Virus record (IMG/VR): IMGVR_UViG_2541047907_000004
Span: 1 to 43,411 of that record
Length of the DNA stretch: 43,411 bases
Strand: one strand, 5' to 3'
From: a virus
Lineage: Duplodnaviria; Heunggongvirae; Uroviricota; Caudoviricetes
Shown piece by piece: positions 2,466 through 39,186 of this stretch. Numbering within the stretch: the stretch's first letter is position 1; each line of letters opens with the position of its first letter. The notes beneath the pieces are model-generated. The model saw only the letters and a program-made list of their open reading frames with translations, was not told the origin of the DNA and did no database searches. Made by a program: the position numbers and the translations under genes.

Positions 2466-4547
2466 TCAATTTATTGATAACATTTGCGCATTTGTCCCAA
2501 TTTTTGCAAATGTTGCAACTTTCCATGATGCGCCAGCAATGTCATTGCCTGAAATTGTAATTATATTGCCATCAGTTCCTGGTGCTTTGTTATTACCGAT
2601 AGTAGTCTTACCATCAATGTTTATTATTGTAATTTTCTGCCCTGGTGAGATGTAACGAAGTCTAGACAGCGTTGTATTCGATGCTTGGCTGATTGTTGCT
2701 TGTGATGTATGGGTTACTACAGGAGCCACACCAGTTATTGTATTAAAAGAACTTCCCGTCCCCCTAAACATTACACCAAAGTATATATTTTGTGTGCATA
2801 TAATCAATCTATCACCAACACCGGGGTATATTAATGATGGATCATACGCCATTTTATAGTTATTTGTTTCATGATATGTATTTTTTAGTAACAACACCTC
2901 AGCGCCAGATCCAGCTTTAACTCGCGGAGGTGTAGAGCAATAAAAATCAGCATATGATAGTAGGTCGAACATATAAGATGTAACTAAACTATTTGGATGT
3001 TCGATATCAACCCCACCTTCAAAGAATATGCTACCTGAACTTGTGCAAAAAGCTGTTCTTGGCTGCTGAGGTGATGAATTTATGTTTCTATATTTAAACG
3101 ATCCCATTACTGTAAGTGCCGCTTCTCCTGAAGACTGAAGACATGCTTGCTTAATTACCCCTTGCTGATTTGCAGTGATGTTTATGATGCCAAACTTGAC
3201 GTCAGTCCCAGCACCAACGCACAATATATTGTATGCACTAGGATCTTGACCAGGACCGGTGAAATTGGCATTGACATCACACACGCAGTTAACAGACCCA
3301 ACTGATCCTGTAGCACCATCTAAGAAATAAGAAATAGAAGAAAGACCAATACCGGATATACTCTCTATTCTAAAACCTGCTGTAGTATGAAGTTTTACTG
3401 GTGAGCACGCCAGAGGAGAGCCATCTACATATATTTCACCACAATAAAAACCCTTACCATGGCCATTTGTGTACAATGCATGACCTTCATGACCTTGCGA
3501 TGCAGTGATGTTTTTGTGATAAATACTACCTATGCGCTGATTATCAAATACAACTCCAAATACCCCGAAATCAACAGTATTAAAAATAGCTTTATCTATT
3601 TTCGCAGACACTCCTGTGAACCACACACCAGCAATAAACCCATAAACATCAATTGTATCTATATAGAACCCTGATACATCTCTATTTTCGTAATAATTCA
3701 TCCAAATTGACGCCCCATAAGATTTCCAGTCTCCAGATGTGACGTATGAATAACCGAGGGTGTTACTGCTTATAACAGCCGTTCTATCACCATTGTACTC
3801 AAACTTCCAGTATCCGAGCATTTTAACACGTGGCGTACGTACCTCAAATACAGGATACCCCCACAGCAATTGCTCAAAGATAGCATTATCAGAAATTAGA
3901 ACCATGTCAGGATTTGGAATTATAATCCACCCAGATATAGTGTATTTTAGATTTCCAAATTCTATTCTCTTTGCACCGCTATTTAGAGCAGCATTAATTG
4001 CTGCCATATCAGCAATGTAATCGCCAACACCAATAGAACCATGTTCTGCAAAGTCGGTAACAGATACTGTTTCTGAGTTTTTATCGTGTTGTGTACGTAG
4101 AACTGAGCCAACGAAAGGTTGCTTAACGCCAAGCATTGCATCACCTTTCGAGTCATCTTCAGCATATACTCCTGTTTGGGATAACTGCTGAAGAAGATTT
4201 GGTCCGAACTGATCAGGGTCATACTTCAGCACATTAGGAAAATAGAACTGCTGCGCACCATATGCATCATAAACAGCCATCGAATGACCTTGCACGGTTA
4301 CAAACTTGGCAATCTGTCCGTTATATACAGGATAACCAGCAGCGTTGATAACTATTGGCTGCGCCACCTGAACATGAGAGCCATCTTCTCGTTCCAGATA
4401 TACAGGGATCTGGTTTTCTGGATTTACCGGGTCAGTGTCAATTTTACCGATATAAATTTTGCCATTGGCAACCGCTTTAAAAGAACGCGCCATAGTGAAG
4501 AGTTGCGATGGCATACTCACTACAACATTGGCTGTAATGTCTGTCAT
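2466..4547 (-). CDS. Tailspike protein: P22 gp9-like N-terminal head-binding domain plus a divergent receptor-binding/enzymatic domain
   Basis: 693 aa; N-terminus [50 protein letters not shown]... closely matches remembered P22 tailspike N-terminus; the remainder is G/S/T/N-rich beta-helix-like and not P22-like. Confidence 0.85.
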
Positions 4548-35020: not shown

Positions 35021-35130
35021 AGCATTCAAAGCAGAAGGCTTTGAGTAGCGCGAAATGCAGCTGCAAGACAGCAACCGTGGAGATAAGCATCACGGCGCGT
35101 TACTCAAAGCTAACTGACAGGAGAATCCAG

Positions 35131-35457
35131 ATGGATGCACAAACACGCCGCCGCGAACGTCGCGCAGAGAAACAGGCTCAATGGAAAGCAGCAAATCCCC
35201 TGTTGGTTGGGGTAAGCGCAAAACCAGTTAACCGCCCTATTCTCTCGCTGAATCGCAAACCGAAATCACGAGTAGAAAGCGCACTGAATCCGATAGACCT
35301 TACGGTGCTGGCTGAATACCACGAACAGATTGAAAGCAACCTGCAACGTATTGAGCGCAAGAATCAGCGCACATGGTACAGCAAGCCACGCAGTGAAATG
35401 GGGGTGACTTGTGTTGGTCGCCAGAAAATGAAATTAGGCAGCAAACCACTTATTTGA
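35131..35457 (+). CDS. N: Antitermination protein N
   Basis: MDAQTRRRERRAEKQAQWKAANPLLVGVSAKPVNRPILSLNRKPKSRVESALNPIDLTVLAEYH... matching remembered lambda N; AGGAGA RBS. Confidence 0.9.
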   Translation: MDAQTRRRERRAEKQAQWKAANPLLVGVSAKPVNRPILSLNRKPKSRVESALNPIDLTVLAEYHEQIESNLQRIERKNQRTWYSKPRSEMGVTCVGRQKMKLGSKPLI

Positions 35458-35465
35458 GGTGATAT

Positions 35466-35552
35466 ATGGAAGAAGAATTTGAAGAGTTCGAAGAGCATCC
35501 GCAGGATGTGATGGAACAATACCAGGACTATCCGTATGACTACGACTATTGA
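35466..35552 (+). CDS. Possible 28-aa acidic micro-protein (MEEEFEEFEEHPQDVMEQYQDYPYDYDY)
   Basis: ATG 6 nt downstream of GAGGTGA, immediately after the N stop; overlaps the ral start by 17 nt; not in the ORF track because of its size. Confidence 0.3.
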   Translation: MEEEFEEFEEHPQDVMEQYQDYPYDYDY

Positions 35553-35736
35553 TAAGAATCAATGGTGTGGACAATTCAAACGATGCAATGGATGCAAGCT
35601 GCAATCGGAATGCATGGTTAAGCCTGAAGAAATGTTTCCTGTAATGGAAGATGGGAAATATGTCGATAAATGGGCAATACGAACGACGGCAATGATTGCC
35701 AGAGAACTTGGTAAACAGAATAACAAGGCTGCCTGA
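35536..35736 (+). CDS. ral: Restriction alleviation protein Ral
   Basis: 66 aa MTTTIDKNQWCGQFKRCNGCKLQSECMVKPEEMFPVMEDGKYVDKW..., matching remembered lambda Ral. Confidence 0.8.
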   Translation: MTTTIDKNQWCGQFKRCNGCKLQSECMVKPEEMFPVMEDGKYVDKWAIRTTAMIARELGKQNNKAA

Positions 35737-35775
35737 TGGTGGCCTTTATTTTTGGCACTAACAACAGAGGCTAAC

Positions 35776-36072
35776 ATGGAATTTAAAGGTACTGAAGGTA
35801 AGTGGGAAATAATGATGGATGGCGATGAGATTAAAATCATCCAGGCAGACTCTCTTGAAAATGGCACAGGCTGGCGTTCGTATATTGCAATCTGTGAGGA
35901 AGTTCAATGCATTGAAGATGCCAATCTAATAGCGGCAGCACCTGACCTTCTCGAAGCACTTCAGTTATTACTTAAGCAATCCAAAAATAGAACAACGACA
36001 ACATATCCAGAATGGTATGGAGCTGTTAATAAAGGTCTCGCAGCAATCAGAAAAGCCATAGGTGATGAGTAA
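35776..36072 (+). CDS. Hypothetical early protein (98 aa)
   Basis: ATG 5 nt downstream of AGAGG; contains a NLIAAAPDLLEAL-type motif seen in many enterobacterial phage proteins of unknown function. Confidence 0.5.
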   Translation: MEFKGTEGKWEIMMDGDEIKIIQADSLENGTGWRSYIAICEEVQCIEDANLIAAAPDLLEALQLLLKQSKNRTTTTYPEWYGAVNKGLAAIRKAIGDE

Positions 36073-36230
36073 TGAATAAGAAATACATTGTTGAAGTTAT
36101 AGATCGAGAAACGAAAGAAGTAATTAAACATTTCGAATTTGATAATTATAGAAAAGCTGACCGCGTCGAAGAAGGATTGTTGCGACAAAGTAATCTCGAA
36201 AAATTTGATGTTGTCATGCGATGCGAATAA
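36072..36230 (+). CDS. Hypothetical small protein (52 aa)
   Basis: ATG overlapping the upstream stop (TAATG); found by manual translation. Confidence 0.35.
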   Translation: MNKKYIVEVIDRETKEVIKHFEFDNYRKADRVEEGLLRQSNLEKFDVVMRCE

Positions 36231-36323
36231 GCGCCTATAGCAGATTTGCGAGTCTGCTATGTGAGCAATGTCGCTCGTAACTAAACAGGAGCCGACTTGT
36301 TCTGATTATTGGAAATCTTCTTT

Positions 36324-36350
36324 GCCCTCCAGTGTGAGGGCAATTTTTTT
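36324..36350 (+). terminator. Intrinsic terminator-like hairpin within the early-left operon
   Basis: Hairpin gccctc-cagtgt-gagggc followed by aattttttt, upstream of the 36363 gene. Confidence 0.45.
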
Positions 36351-36362
36351 GACGGAGGATAT

Positions 36363-37331
36363 ATGAGTGAAGTAACAGATTTAGTTGTTATTGAAAAAGC
36401 AAATGCAATGACTGTATTTCAGTCTGCCGACCAGATTGAAGAAATCCTTCAAAGGGTTGAACGTGAAGTTATGTCCTTTGTGCCTGATATCACAACGGCA
36501 AAGGGCAGAAAGGAGATCGCTTCTCTGGCGTATAAAGTTGCGCAGACGAAAACATATCTCGATGGTCTTGGCAAAGACCTTGTTGCTGAACTGAAGGAAA
36601 TTCCAAAGCTAATTGATGCCAACCGCAAGACAGTGCGTGATCGCCTTGATGAGCTGAAAGCCAAGGCGCGCCAGCCTCTTACTGATTATGAGGAGGAACA
36701 GGCACGGATTAAAGCCGAAGAAGAAGCTAAGGCAGCAGCTGAAGCTCTCGCAAAGCAAATTGAGTCTGACCATGAAATAGCGATTTTGATGGATCGCGAA
36801 TTTGACCGCCAAAGAGAAGAGGCAAGACTCAAAGCGGAGCGGGAAAAGCGAGAGCATGAAGAACGCTTAAAAAGAGAAGCTGAAGAGAGAGCCAGAGCAG
36901 AAGCCGAAGCAAAGGCAAAAGCCGAAATTGAAGCAGCAGCAAGGCGAGAAGCAGAAGCTAAGGCCGCAGCGGAACGTGCAGAGCGTGAACGCATTGAAGC
37001 CGAGCAACGAGCACAGCGCGAAGCAAAAGAGGCAGCAGAACGAGCTGAAAGAGAAAAGCAGGCGGCAATTGAAGCAGAACGCCGAAAAGCACAGGAGGAG
37101 GCTGAACGAATCCGGCGCGAGGCTGAAGCAAAAGAGCAAGCCAGAATAGCAGAAGAAAAAAGAATCAAGGAAGAAGAAGAGCGTAGAGCAAAGGATAAAG
37201 CTCACCGGAAAGAAGTAAATAACAAAATACTTGCTGACCTTATCAAGGTTGGTGCATCAGAAGATGTTGCTAAAAATATCATAACAGCCATCGTAAAAGG
37301 CGAAGTATTCGCAACAAAAATAACCTACTAA
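36363..37331 (+). CDS. Hypothetical protein with long low-complexity E/A/R/K-rich helical region (322 aa)
   Basis: ATG downstream of GGAGG; N-terminal globular region, central repeats (AEREKREHEERLKREAEERARAEAEAKAKAE...), C-terminal globular region. Confidence 0.55.
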   Translation: MSEVTDLVVIEKANAMTVFQSADQIEEILQRVEREVMSFVPDITTAKGRKEIASLAYKVAQTKTYLDGLGKDLVAELKEIPKLIDANRKTVRDRLDELKAKARQPLTDYEEEQARIKAEEEAKAAAEALAKQIESDHEIAILMDREFDRQREEARLKAEREKREHEERLKREAEERARAEAEAKAKAEIEAAARREAEAKAAAERAERERIEAEQRAQREAKEAAERAEREKQAAIEAERRKAQEEAERIRREAEAKEQARIAEEKRIKEEEERRAKDKAHRKEVNNKILADLIKVGASEDVAKNIITAIVKGEVFATKITY

Positions 37332-37355: not shown

Positions 37356-37487
37356 ATGATTTACGCAATCGCGGGAGGCGCTCGCATGGGTGCCTTCCAA
37401 TTAAATGAATCTTTACTTGAACGAATCACCCGTAAATTACGTGACGGATGGAAAAGAGTTGAGGTCTTATTATGCGCAATGAAATAG
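37356..37487 (+). CDS. Hypothetical small protein (43 aa)
   Basis: ATG downstream of AAGGAA; found by manual translation. Confidence 0.3.
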   Translation: MIYAIAGGARMGAFQLNESLLERITRKLRDGWKRVEVLLCAMK

Positions 37488-37624
37488 CCATCAATCACCA
37501 GATGCTTCGTGCTGCACAAAACAAAGCAGTAATAGCCAGATTTATTGGTGATTCCAAAATGTGGCTTGAAGCAAATAAAGCGATGAAATCAGCTATCAAC
37601 CTTCCGTGGTATCGCAGGAAATGA
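37472..37624 (+). CDS. Kil-like small protein (possible host division inhibitor)
   Basis: 50 aa MRNEIAINHQMLRAAQNKAVIARFIGDSKMWLEANKAMKS...; the FIGD..KM..EA motif resembles my recollection of lambda Kil; weak assignment. Confidence 0.4.
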   Translation: MRNEIAINHQMLRAAQNKAVIARFIGDSKMWLEANKAMKSAINLPWYRRK

Positions 37625-37880: not shown

Positions 37881-38486
37881 ATGAGCAAAGAATTTTACGC
37901 AAGACTGGCAGCTATTCAGGAGAATCTGAACGCGCCAAAGAATCAGTACAACTCATTCGGCAAATATAAATACAGAAGCTGCGAAGATATTCTTGAAGGC
38001 GTTAAGCCGTTACTGAATGGTCTGTTTTTATCAATCAGCGATGAAGTTGTGTTGATTGGTGATCGGTATTACGTGAAAGCCACGGCAACTATTACCGATG
38101 GCGAAAACAGTCATACGGCAACCGCTCTTGCACGAGAGGAAGAAAGCAAGAAAGGAATGGATTCTGCACAAGTTACGGGAGCTACAAGCTCTTATGCACG
38201 CAAGTATTGCCTCAATGGTTTGTTCGGCATTGATGATGCGAAAGATGCAGATACCGACGAGCATAAACATCAGCAGAACGCAGCAGCAAAGCAATCAAAA
38301 CCATCACCTACACCTGAACAGGTTCTAAAAGCATTCACTGACGCAGCATTGCAGAAAAACACCGTGGAAGAGCTTAAACAGGCGTTCGCCAAAGCGTGGA
38401 AGATGCTCGAAGGCACACCTGAGCAGCACAAAGCGCAGGACGTTTACAACATCAGACGAGACGAATTAGAAGGAGCGGCTGCTTAA
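37881..38486 (+). CDS. erf: Erf single-strand annealing recombinase
   Basis: From MSKEFYARLAAIQENLNAPKNQYNSFGKYKYRSCEDILEGVKPLLNGLFLSISDEVVLIGDRYYVKATA..., matching remembered P22 Erf. Confidence 0.9.
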   Translation: MSKEFYARLAAIQENLNAPKNQYNSFGKYKYRSCEDILEGVKPLLNGLFLSISDEVVLIGDRYYVKATATITDGENSHTATALAREEESKKGMDSAQVTGATSSYARKYCLNGLFGIDDAKDADTDEHKHQQNAAAKQSKPSPTPEQVLKAFTDAALQKNTVEELKQAFAKAWKMLEGTPEQHKAQDVYNIRRDELEGAAA

Positions 38487-38869
38487 TGGCACATTCGATT
38501 ACTGTAAGACTAAACAAGCCCACAAGAGAGTTTCAGGCAGGGGAAAATATCGGATTCAACATCCGTGCTGGCGTTCAGTATTACGATCGCCAGACAAAAA
38601 AGAAAGAATGGACAAACTACAGCGCCGTTGTATTTGCCAAGCCTGGAGCGCAAGCGGATTACTACCGTAGTGTTCTTGTTGAAGGTGGCATTGTGGAAAT
38701 TACCGGAGAAAACATCAGGGTTGATGTTTATCAGGGGCAAAATGGTCAATCAATCACTCTTGAATTACTGAATGCAAAGATTGGATTTGCAACTTCAGGA
38801 AACAGCCAACAGCAACAAAGTAGCAATCATCAAAATCATCCTGAATACGACGATTCAATTCCCTTCTAA
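38486..38869 (+). CDS. Phage single-stranded DNA-binding protein (short SSB with C-terminal acidic tip)
   Basis: 127 aa; start overlaps erf stop (TAATG); OB-fold-like pattern and C-terminal ...PEYDDSIPF resembling the SSB DDDIPF tail. Confidence 0.6.
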   Translation: MAHSITVRLNKPTREFQAGENIGFNIRAGVQYYDRQTKKKEWTNYSAVVFAKPGAQADYYRSVLVEGGIVEITGENIRVDVYQGQNGQSITLELLNAKIGFATSGNSQQQQSSNHQNHPEYDDSIPF

Positions 38870-38892: not shown

Positions 38893-39186
38893 ATGCCAGC
38901 GCCTCTGTATGGTGCGGACGACGCGCGCCGCTGTTCCGGCAATTCCGTATCGGAGGTGCTGGATAAATTCAGAAAAAACTACGATCGGATAATGTCGCTA
39001 CCACAGGAAACGAAAGAGGAAAAGGAATTTCGCCATTGCATATGGCTTGCAGAGAAAGAAGAACGCGAGCGAATTTACCAGACATCAATCCGACCATTCC
39101 GCAAAGCCACATATACCCACTTCCCTGAAATTGACCCGCGCCTGCGTAATTACCGCTCACGCTATGGCGCTATCAGTAATGACTGA
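38893..39186 (+). CDS. abc2: Anti-RecBCD protein Abc2
   Basis: 97 aa [63 protein letters not shown]... matching remembered P22 Abc2. Confidence 0.8.

Follow-up and report, generated by a model that had tools for sequence, protein, structure and literature searches.

The window, which is the whole 43,411-nucleotide stretch of DNA analyzed here (IMG/VR virus record IMGVR_UViG_2541047907_000004; Caudoviricetes), carries at positions 36,363 to 37,331 a gene for a protein of 322 amino acids (aa). By its sequence, this protein is a full-length relative of Agt from phage phi80 and belongs to a large uncharacterized family. It is a real, selected, and soluble protein, in which two conserved end domains are joined by a long helix resembling a single alpha-helix (SAH). 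The gene is already present in hundreds of records, and the family, which is named from phi80, has neither a Pfam entry nor a mechanism. The constant companions of the family are recombination genes, and these were missed by the initial annotation of this DNA, which was made without database searches. The interpretation given somewhat better than an even chance is that the protein assists the recombination and anti-nuclease module of the phage as an accessory factor, with the SAH as a spacer; beside the observed homology, architecture, selection, and gene linkage, we infer the mechanism, that is, the partners, the role of the spacer, and the effect on nucleases.

BLASTP aligned the protein with phi80 (Lula) Agt (YP_007947961.1), also of 322 aa, with an E-value of 5e-64 and 51% identity along the full 322 aa, through the N-terminal domain, the rod, and the C-terminal domain. 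Both proteins match phrog_1376, a family without an assigned function in PHROGs, from end to end (positions 1–362 of 362). The three-part architecture of Agt is found in the window protein: an N-terminal core of the form KGRK...KTYLD..GK.LV...PLT.WE, a charged helical rod, and a C-terminal domain ending in I-x-Y. In the phi80 record, the product of agt is named 'anti-toxin for Gam' with the note 'Mog (modifier of Gam)', and gamL ('gam-like host nuclease inhibitor; toxic without Mog'), recT, and exo are directly downstream of it. The 2012 abstract of Rotman and coworkers is said to report that phi80 gamL was not clonable alone, that GamL inhibits RecBCD and SbcCD, that agt is 'its own antidote, apparently encoding a modifier protein', and that the lysogens are recD and sbcCD phenocopies. 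The phenocopy phenotype is cited as reported in PMC5862497, and was not seen in MG1655. A 2025 survey of lambdoid Rec modules (PMC12315714) mentions GamL and not Agt, and the family-wide link to recombination modules is mentioned neither there nor in the phi80 annotation. In the literature covered, which does not include the original phi80 study, nothing relevant on GamL, Agt, or Mog was found. Assignment by homology to a well-characterized family of known function would have counted against the initial annotation. This applies only by half: homology leads to a gene that has a name, phi80 agt, and for which a genetic phenotype is reported, but the family is not well characterized and has no known mechanism.

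The extent of the family was analyzed by an exhaustive HMMER search, in which a profile of the N-terminal 120 residues was compared with 1.84 billion representative proteins. The family comprises 5,544 clusters at 50% identity (E ≤ 1e-3), or 4,682 with E ≤ 1e-10, and the typical length is 290–370 aa (quartiles approximately 307–351 aa). A tblastn search of annotated phages with the N-terminal domain returned 156 records, including phi80, from Pseudomonas (58), Escherichia (20), Vibrio (20), Klebsiella, Erwinia, Shewanella, Acinetobacter, Sinorhizobium, and other hosts. No meaningful match in Pfam, NCBIfam, or PADLOC was obtained for the whole protein, its fragments, or 30 diverse relatives; among the Pfam families looked for with this set were Siphovirus Gp157 and DUF1351, helical proteins encoded beside recombinases in phages of Gram-positive bacteria, neither of which was matched.

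The open reading frame (ORF) encodes a real, conserved protein under purifying selection. Among 70 distinct alleles, the ratio of nonsynonymous to synonymous substitution rates (dN/dS) in the sense frame is 0.12–0.21 (N-terminal domain 0.12, rod 0.21, C-terminal domain 0.12), and it is 0.05 for the N-terminal domain against the Erwinia homologues. The sense frame is therefore the coding frame, and the two long ORFs on the opposite strand look spurious, as was proposed from the start; both translate into Ser/Ala/Cys/Phe low-complexity sequences.

The protein contains 63 Glu, 60 Ala, 37 Arg, and 34 Lys residues, which together account for 194 of the 322, and its overall charge is near neutral (K+R 71, D+E 78). 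The fraction of E/A/R/K/Q per 20-residue window is 0.85–1.0 from residue ~151 to ~280; a first patch rich in these residues is located at 111–130, residues 131–150 are less extreme, and the region covers ~170 residues overall. AlphaFold2 (AF2) predicted an unbroken helix for residues 108–295 from the single sequence and for residues 81–295 with an alignment of 126 sequences, in the latter case with a mean predicted local distance difference test score of 85 (89–97 in the rod). Composition, AF2 model, and conservation profile thus agree with the original description of ~170 charged helical residues between two conserved ends.

Conservation is uneven along the chain. The information content across the family peaks at residues 41–110, the core of the N-terminal domain, with the pattern PD.ST.KGRKEIAS.A.KVA.SKTYLD..GK.LVAE.KE.PK.IDA.RK..RD.LDAL.DEVR.PLTEWE, in which R49, K78, D85, L95, P105, and E110 are invariant among the 126 sequences. 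The protein is closed by a second conserved motif, HR..IN..A...L...G....AK....AI..G.I....I.Y (or, in a variant form, HRxxIN..L...G....AK....AI..G.I....I.Y). The charged helical middle is weakly conserved across the family, and some branches have an extra helical insert. Structure searches with the AF2 model matched nothing beyond members of the family and three-helix bundles of a generic kind, and the best hit of a sequence-profile search against the PDB had an E-value of 0.53. No transmembrane segment was found, the maximum Kyte-Doolittle hydropathy over 19 residues being 1.03 (residues 293–311).

The rod has the signature of an ER/K-type SAH, not of a coiled coil, and would be a monomeric helix in solution, although the unbroken helix of AF2 is not diagnostic of this. 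It is 57% charged and charge-balanced (K+R 49, D+E 54). Opposite charges are paired at i/i+3 and i/i+4 more often (0.51 per residue) than in 500 shuffles (0.32 ± 0.03). A hydrophobic heptad seam was not found: in the best register, LIVMFYW occupy 0.12 of the a/d positions (residues 150–247), and with Ala counted the occupancy is 0.58, against 0.55 ± 0.03 in shuffles. The check for a coiled coil suggested by the initial annotation thus gave no canonical coiled coil but an SAH-like pattern. Neither heptad nor hendecad periodicity was significant (peak power 64 versus a shuffle maximum of 49 ± 12). At 1.5 Å per residue, the rod would be ~25 nm long.

Compared with phi80 Agt, the rod of the window protein shows 60–74% aa identity, and the N- and C-terminal domains show 35–46%. 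Recent recombination as the source of the rod similarity was ruled out, as the nucleotide identity between the window gene and phi80 agt (locus L084, 4001–4969), 58–67%, is lower than the aa identity. This suggests, at the level of sequence comparison, that the rod is under constraint within the window/phi80 lineage. It is not disposable filler, because its dN/dS is 0.21 and 77 of the 80 close relatives have a length of exactly 322 aa.

These properties of the rod bear on a different structural reading, in which two chains form an antiparallel pair, the N-terminal domain of each packs on the C-terminal domain of its partner, and the composite heads of this dumbbell, ~25 nm apart, bridge DNA or complexes, by tethering DNA ends or organizing a replication-recombination focus. 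The co-conservation of the N- and C-terminal domains while the rod sequence varies, the tight rod length within lineages, and the linkage to recombination genes would fit such a bridge, as would two strand-like segments, LVVIE in the N-terminal part and I-x-I-x-Y at the C-terminus, which are unpaired in the monomer model. A paired rod is however difficult to reconcile with the near absence of a hydrophobic seam and of significant heptad or hendecad periodicity, and the N-terminal domain is not net basic (K+R 18, D+E 20). The dumbbell is thus considered unlikely.

A reading that goes back to the initial annotation takes the protein as a host-takeover factor unrelated to recombination, whose charged region might mimic a nucleic acid or a membrane or serve only as an inert spacer. 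The extreme composition and the position in an early operon with the host-directed genes ral, cIII, and kil are compatible with this, and no family assignment contradicts it, but the rod is charge-balanced and not acidic, and so is not a DNA mimic. A membrane mimic is not indicated either, given the near-neutral charge and the lack of amphipathic periodicity and of a transmembrane segment; of the functions proposed at that time, only that of a spacer fits the SAH-like charge pattern and the missing heptad seam. In addition, the conservation in the family sits in the N-terminal domain and not in the rod, and the association with recombination genes extends across distant phage groups. A role outside recombination is accordingly held to be improbable. 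An amphipathic or lipid-binding rod, suggested by a 3.67-residue (hendecad) periodicity, was also considered and rejected, as the periodicity is not significant against shuffles and is inconsistent across the family.

The gene neighborhood was analyzed in 106 loci from annotated phages, from one genome per species, and from IMG/VR contigs. Homologues were found with hidden Markov models (HMMs), neighbors on the same strand were classified with seeded HMMs, and dereplication at 80% identity of the N-terminal domain yielded 37 clusters; 20 of the loci came from a contig profile scan with a narrower family alignment. A gene for a strand-annealing protein, an exonuclease, or a single-stranded DNA-binding protein (SSB) is present on the same strand within 2.5 kb in 31 of the 37 clusters, often at a spacing of 0–12 nt. 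Pfam analysis of 64 recombination neighbors identified RecT (13), YqaJ (13), ERF (9), SSB (8), DUF3799 (PD-(D/E)XK; 5), DNA_pol_B_exo2 (4), AAA_24 (Sak4; 2), Abc2 (1), and NinB (1). At loci that were not classified by the seeded HMMs, the neighbors include two more AAA_24 (Sak4) proteins, one Sipho_Gp157 protein, one PD-(D/E)XK nuclease, and helicase domains, and the number of clusters with recombination neighbors is probably a few more than 31. The Sipho_Gp157 gene is a neighbor of the Agt gene at its locus, not a homologue. A presumed case of DUF1351 beside a Sak-type recombinase in Staphylococcus phage 80alpha was dropped, as the annotated region shows no such gene.

The linkage is independent of the family of the annealing protein and of the gene order. 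Annotated examples are orf53-Erf-exo in Pseudomonas phage D3, gp10-Erf-exo-NinB in Sinorhizobium phage phiLM21, and ERF-SSB-homologue in Vibrio phage V039C, as well as Serratia phage Eta and Acinetobacter phage TCUAN1. In D3, phiLM21, and TCUAN1, the homologue is upstream of the module; in V039C and Aeromonas prophages, it is downstream. Even among members of one cluster (at least 80% N-domain identity), the adjacent module is GamL-RecT-Exo, GamL-Bet-Exo, a Sak4-type protein with SSB, or RecT-Exo. This switching of modules speaks for a function in recombination or DNA-end handling generally, and against one that depends on a particular phage partner.

The pairing with GamL is the point at which a narrower function has to be considered, namely, that the protein is a dedicated antidote to one toxic small early neighbor (GamL in phi80; Kil or Abc2 here) and has no wider role in recombination. 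The phi80 annotation says as much of agt and gamL, gamL follows within 0–8 nt in 25 of the 106 Agt loci, and the genes next to the window gene are cIII and the toxic kil. The pairing was analyzed from the other side with 74 GamL loci that have enough upstream DNA (IMG/VR loci L192–L271, upstream of position 3001): an Agt gene is upstream in 30, and the gap is exactly 7 nt in 30/30. An obligate pairing was nevertheless rejected in both directions, since gamL is absent from 81 of the 106 Agt loci and no Agt-family gene is present within 3 kb upstream in 44 of the 74 GamL loci. 'GamL antidote' therefore cannot describe what the family does in general. Moreover, kil of phi80 is upstream of agt and not beside it, the homologues of Pseudomonas, Sinorhizobium, and Acinetobacter abut the annealing protein directly, and the genes downstream vary within one cluster, as described above. 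A function restricted to detoxification is judged to have a small chance of being correct. At the 44 GamL loci without Agt, the upstream genes are small ORFs of 68–83 aa (for example, ending in ..VIDVLLDGHGNPIQH or ..LLVEVYLNGLGQGISR) or of 157–169 aa. One protein of 249 aa, P0072 (Pfam PF27398), has the look of an Agt N-terminus that a deletion has fused to one of these small proteins.

For the favored interpretation as an accessory factor of recombination, the following mechanism is proposed. The N-terminal three-helix bundle would run into an E/A/R/K helix of ~170–190 residues, which would be capped by the C-terminal mini-domain of ~39 residues. The two end domains may bind two partners or two sites, held by the stiff helix at a set distance. 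The effect would be to tune how the phage handles the host machinery for double-stranded DNA ends (RecBCD, SbcCD); alternatively, it may concern how the phage recombination proteins handle this machinery or are brought to DNA. The tuning of nucleases is proposed because the phi80 homologue is annotated as the antidote through which GamL, an inhibitor of RecBCD and SbcCD, becomes tolerable.

Several points weigh against this interpretation. We know of no member of the family with a known biochemical function, and the functional evidence from phi80 consists of the GenBank annotation and the 2012 abstract. The phages lambda and P22 recombine without an Agt-type protein. In mosaic lambdoid genomes, linkage can partly reflect a conserved map position and not a function, and in the window cIII and kil stand between the gene and erf. 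A GamL homologue was not found in the window by tblastn (best E 2.8), so the activity described for phi80 cannot apply here, and the many GamL loci without an Agt-family gene upstream show that the two genes are not an obligate pair.

A broader proposal can be derived from the distribution, and it is put forward tentatively, with doubts exceeding confidence: the Agt family may represent a widespread, overlooked class of mediators of single-strand-annealing modules in temperate phages of Proteobacteria. The protein would be an SAH tether of ~25 nm, with the N-terminal bundle and the C-terminal mini-domain coupling the recombinase/anti-nuclease set to host DNA-end machinery (RecBCD, SbcCD, or SSB), and it would set how far host nucleases are inhibited or redirected. 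If so, the family would be a new class of recombination mediators and not an oddity of phi80.

The names under which the gene is found in databases point elsewhere. Genes with 98–99% DNA identity are gene 33 of Sf6, the 'TolA' genes of mEp043, mEp213, and mEp234, and genes of HK544, CUS-3, IME10 (Orf53), N7, and many Stx phages. The gene is present in 530 of 5,426 complete E. coli genomes (~10%), almost always as a single copy, and the enterobacterial copies share the same position in the early-left (pL) operon, with a tL2A-like terminator on the upstream side and cIII on the downstream side. Deletions in the experimental evolution of Sf6 affected the nin region and not the gene 33 homologue. 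At locus L087 (JAFADF010000066.1), a 3.9-kb contig of a metagenome-assembled genome labeled 'Actinomycetes bacterium', a 99%-identical gene is followed by an annealing-protein gene and ssb; this contig almost certainly represents enterobacterial contamination of an actinobacterial bin.

Records of E. coli call the product 'cell envelope biogenesis protein TolA', 'coiled-coil domain-containing protein', or 'hypothetical'. Homologues bear at least five names that have nothing to do with one another and are due to low complexity: TolA, colicin import membrane protein, fibrinogen binding protein, IgA-specific serine endopeptidase autotransporter precursor, and coil-containing protein. Such proteins had been expected to be mostly unannotated, but this gene is widely misannotated, under the first three of these names. 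The name TolA, used by PGAP and other pipelines, would imply a TolA-like protein of the cell envelope or of colicin import, and it is transferred because the composition of the rod resembles that of TolA domain II. This identity was rejected, as there is no transmembrane anchor, no C-terminal TolA domain III, and no match to a TolA model (none in Pfam; four chance-level matches in NCBIfam, none of them TolA), and the gene belongs to the pL operon of a prophage, with ral upstream and cIII downstream, not to a tol-pal cluster. A TolA-like function is regarded as extremely improbable.

The DNA of the gene had been described as repetitive. The search with Tandem Repeats Finder did not bear this out, as no true tandem repeat was found in the gene apart from a single weak 6-nt periodicity over 84 bp (63% matches, score 43). 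The DNA of the rod is instead a purine-rich codon low-complexity sequence (A+G 72%). A repeat finder detected a few imperfect direct repeats of 27–37 nt within the gene. One of these pairs offers an explanation of a shorter allele of 245 aa that is common in E. coli and Salmonella (P0015 and many other clusters): it matches an in-frame deletion of 77 codons that has the two 27-nt repeats exactly at its end-points, which suggests, as judged from the sequences, a repeat-mediated deletion inside the low-complexity region. A recombinant form of 257 aa also exists in E. coli, and forms of 197, 221, and 262 aa in Klebsiella. Length variation among relatives, which had been predicted, therefore occurs, but as an exception; within lineages, the rod length is held tight.

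The features of the locus are listed in Table 1. The gene is located in the pL operon, as had been recognized. The early-left layout consists of a lambda-like N gene, ral, two small ORFs, the terminator, the agt homologue, cIII, kil, a 57-aa ORF, erf, an SSB-like gene, and abc2. The operon upstream of the terminator (35041-36230) includes the gene for the lambda-type N protein. The strong terminator-like hairpin with its T7 run is located only 13 nt 5' of the start codon and matches 'tL2A' of Sf6, which is annotated immediately upstream of gene 33. The gene is downstream of this tL2-like terminator and is therefore probably an N-dependent delayed-early gene; likewise, the agt homologue and the cIII-kil-erf-abc2 block should need N antitermination. 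It is probably cotranscribed with cIII, kil, erf, the SSB-like gene, and abc2. The gene erf starts 520 nt downstream, and the starts of erf, the SSB-like gene, and abc2 span 520–1,562 nt downstream. Elsewhere, the window resembles the P22/HK620/Sf6 prophages, with a virion half of the HK620/Sf6 type, and as a whole it is a typical lambdoid mosaic.

The start of the SSB-like gene overlaps the stop codon of erf. Its 127-aa product is probably a noncanonical phage SSB, acting through the network of interactions of the SSB tail in the host. The nonhomologous 'SSB-2' (HK620) class mentioned in PMC12315714 may be its counterpart.

Table 1. Features of the agt homologue and its surroundings, in positions of the window.
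Feature	Position	Strand	Evidence or remark
ral, antirestriction gene	35536-35736	+	Pfam Ral, E 1.6e-48
Small ORFs (two)	35776-36072, 36072-36230	+	No family match
Intrinsic-terminator-like hairpin (TTGCCCTC-cagtgt-GAGGGCAA; 36322-36343), then T7	36322..36350	+	Terminator scan
Shine-Dalgarno sequence GGAGGA, 3 nt 5' of ATG	36354..36359	+	Read directly from the sequence
Coding sequence of the 322-aa Agt-family protein (Sf6 gp33 / mEp043 'TolA' / PHROG 1376)	36363..37331	+	Homology, dN/dS
N-terminal domain, residues 1-110, three-helix bundle, most conserved part of the family	36363..36692	+	Alignments, AF2, dN/dS
E/A/R/K-rich rod, residues 111-283, predicted single continuous alpha-helix	36693..37211	+	Composition, AF2, charge pattern
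C-terminal mini-domain, residues 284-322 (HRKEVNNKILADLIKVGASEDVAKNIITAIVKGEVFATKITY), nearly invariant Tyr322 last, with stop codon	37212..37331	+	Alignments, AF2, conservation profile
27-nt direct repeat, copy 1 (encodes ..EEEAKAAAE)	36717..36743	+	Repeat family D1; left end-point of the 77-codon in-frame deletion (245-aa allele)
Second copy of the 27-nt direct repeat, with 89% identity to the first	36948..36974	+	Right boundary of that deletion, 231 nt (77 codons) beyond copy 1
ORF of 160 aa, judged spurious	36686..37168	-	By-product of stop-free GAR/GCN/CGN/AAR codons opposite
ORF of 112 aa, judged spurious	36867..37205	-	Same codon by-product
cIII, FtsH-inhibitor lysogeny factor, next gene downstream	37356..37487	+	Pfam Lambda_CIII, E 4e-15
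kil, cell-division inhibitor	37472..37624	+	Pfam Lambda_Kil, E 1.7e-20
57-aa ORF between kil and erf			Part of the early-left layout
erf, single-strand annealing protein, first gene of the recombination module	37881..38486	+	Pfam ERF, E 2.1e-44
127-aa protein with SSB-like C-terminal tail (..PEYDDSIPF)	38486..38869	+	No Pfam match; grouped with SSBs by a local iterative HMM
abc2, P22-type anti-RecBCD	38893..39186	+	Pfam Anti-RecBCD_p2, E 5.6e-63

The phage recombination modules (Red, RecET, Erf, and Sak4) are core tools of recombineering and drive phage mosaicism, and a helper that stands beside such modules in thousands of phage lineages, misnamed and without a Pfam family, is a gap in their description. 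If the protein tunes the inhibition of RecBCD/SbcCD or tethers recombination proteins, this could explain the toxicity of some anti-nuclease genes that are cloned alone, and it might improve recombineering systems. The label 'TolA' on a gene of about a tenth of the complete E. coli genomes is unsupported, and a curated family model would halt the spread of wrong names.

The closest known system is phi80 Agt, with which the window protein shares the length of 322 aa, the three parts, the PHROG, and the place in the pL operon, on that side of the recombination module which is nearer to the promoter. In phi80, agt is followed by gamL-recT-exo, whereas here the gene is followed by cIII-kil-orf-erf-SSB-like-abc2 without gamL, and the antidote phenotype is reported for phi80 Agt only. 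Orf53 of Pseudomonas phage D3 is a homologue with ~54% identity in the N-terminal domain and abuts Erf-exo. Sf6 gene 33, the 'TolA' of mEp043, and their kin are the same gene or orthologues, and have no assigned function. TolA domain II has a similarly long Ala/Glu/Lys-rich helical region, a resemblance of composition and not homology.

Nonessential helpers in or beside the annealing module, whose mechanisms are poorly defined or unknown, have been described for P22 (Abc1/Arf) and lambda (Orf/NinB) in section 12 of PMC12315714. The Agt-family gene would be a nonessential helper of the same sort, embedded in or adjoining an annealing-protein module, while Abc1/Arf and Orf/NinB are small globular proteins and have no sequence or structural relation to the Agt-family protein. 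SAH domains, as in myosin VI/X and caldesmon, are stiff spacers that set the distance and the encounter rate of the end domains. The rod shares with the ER/K type its high content of Glu with Arg/Lys, the excess of opposite charges at i/i+3 and i/i+4, the missing hydrophobic seam, and the predicted unbroken helix. Unlike the ER/K SAHs of eukaryotic motors and scaffolds, it is phage-borne, unusually rich in Ala (24%), and unusually long (~170–190 residues).

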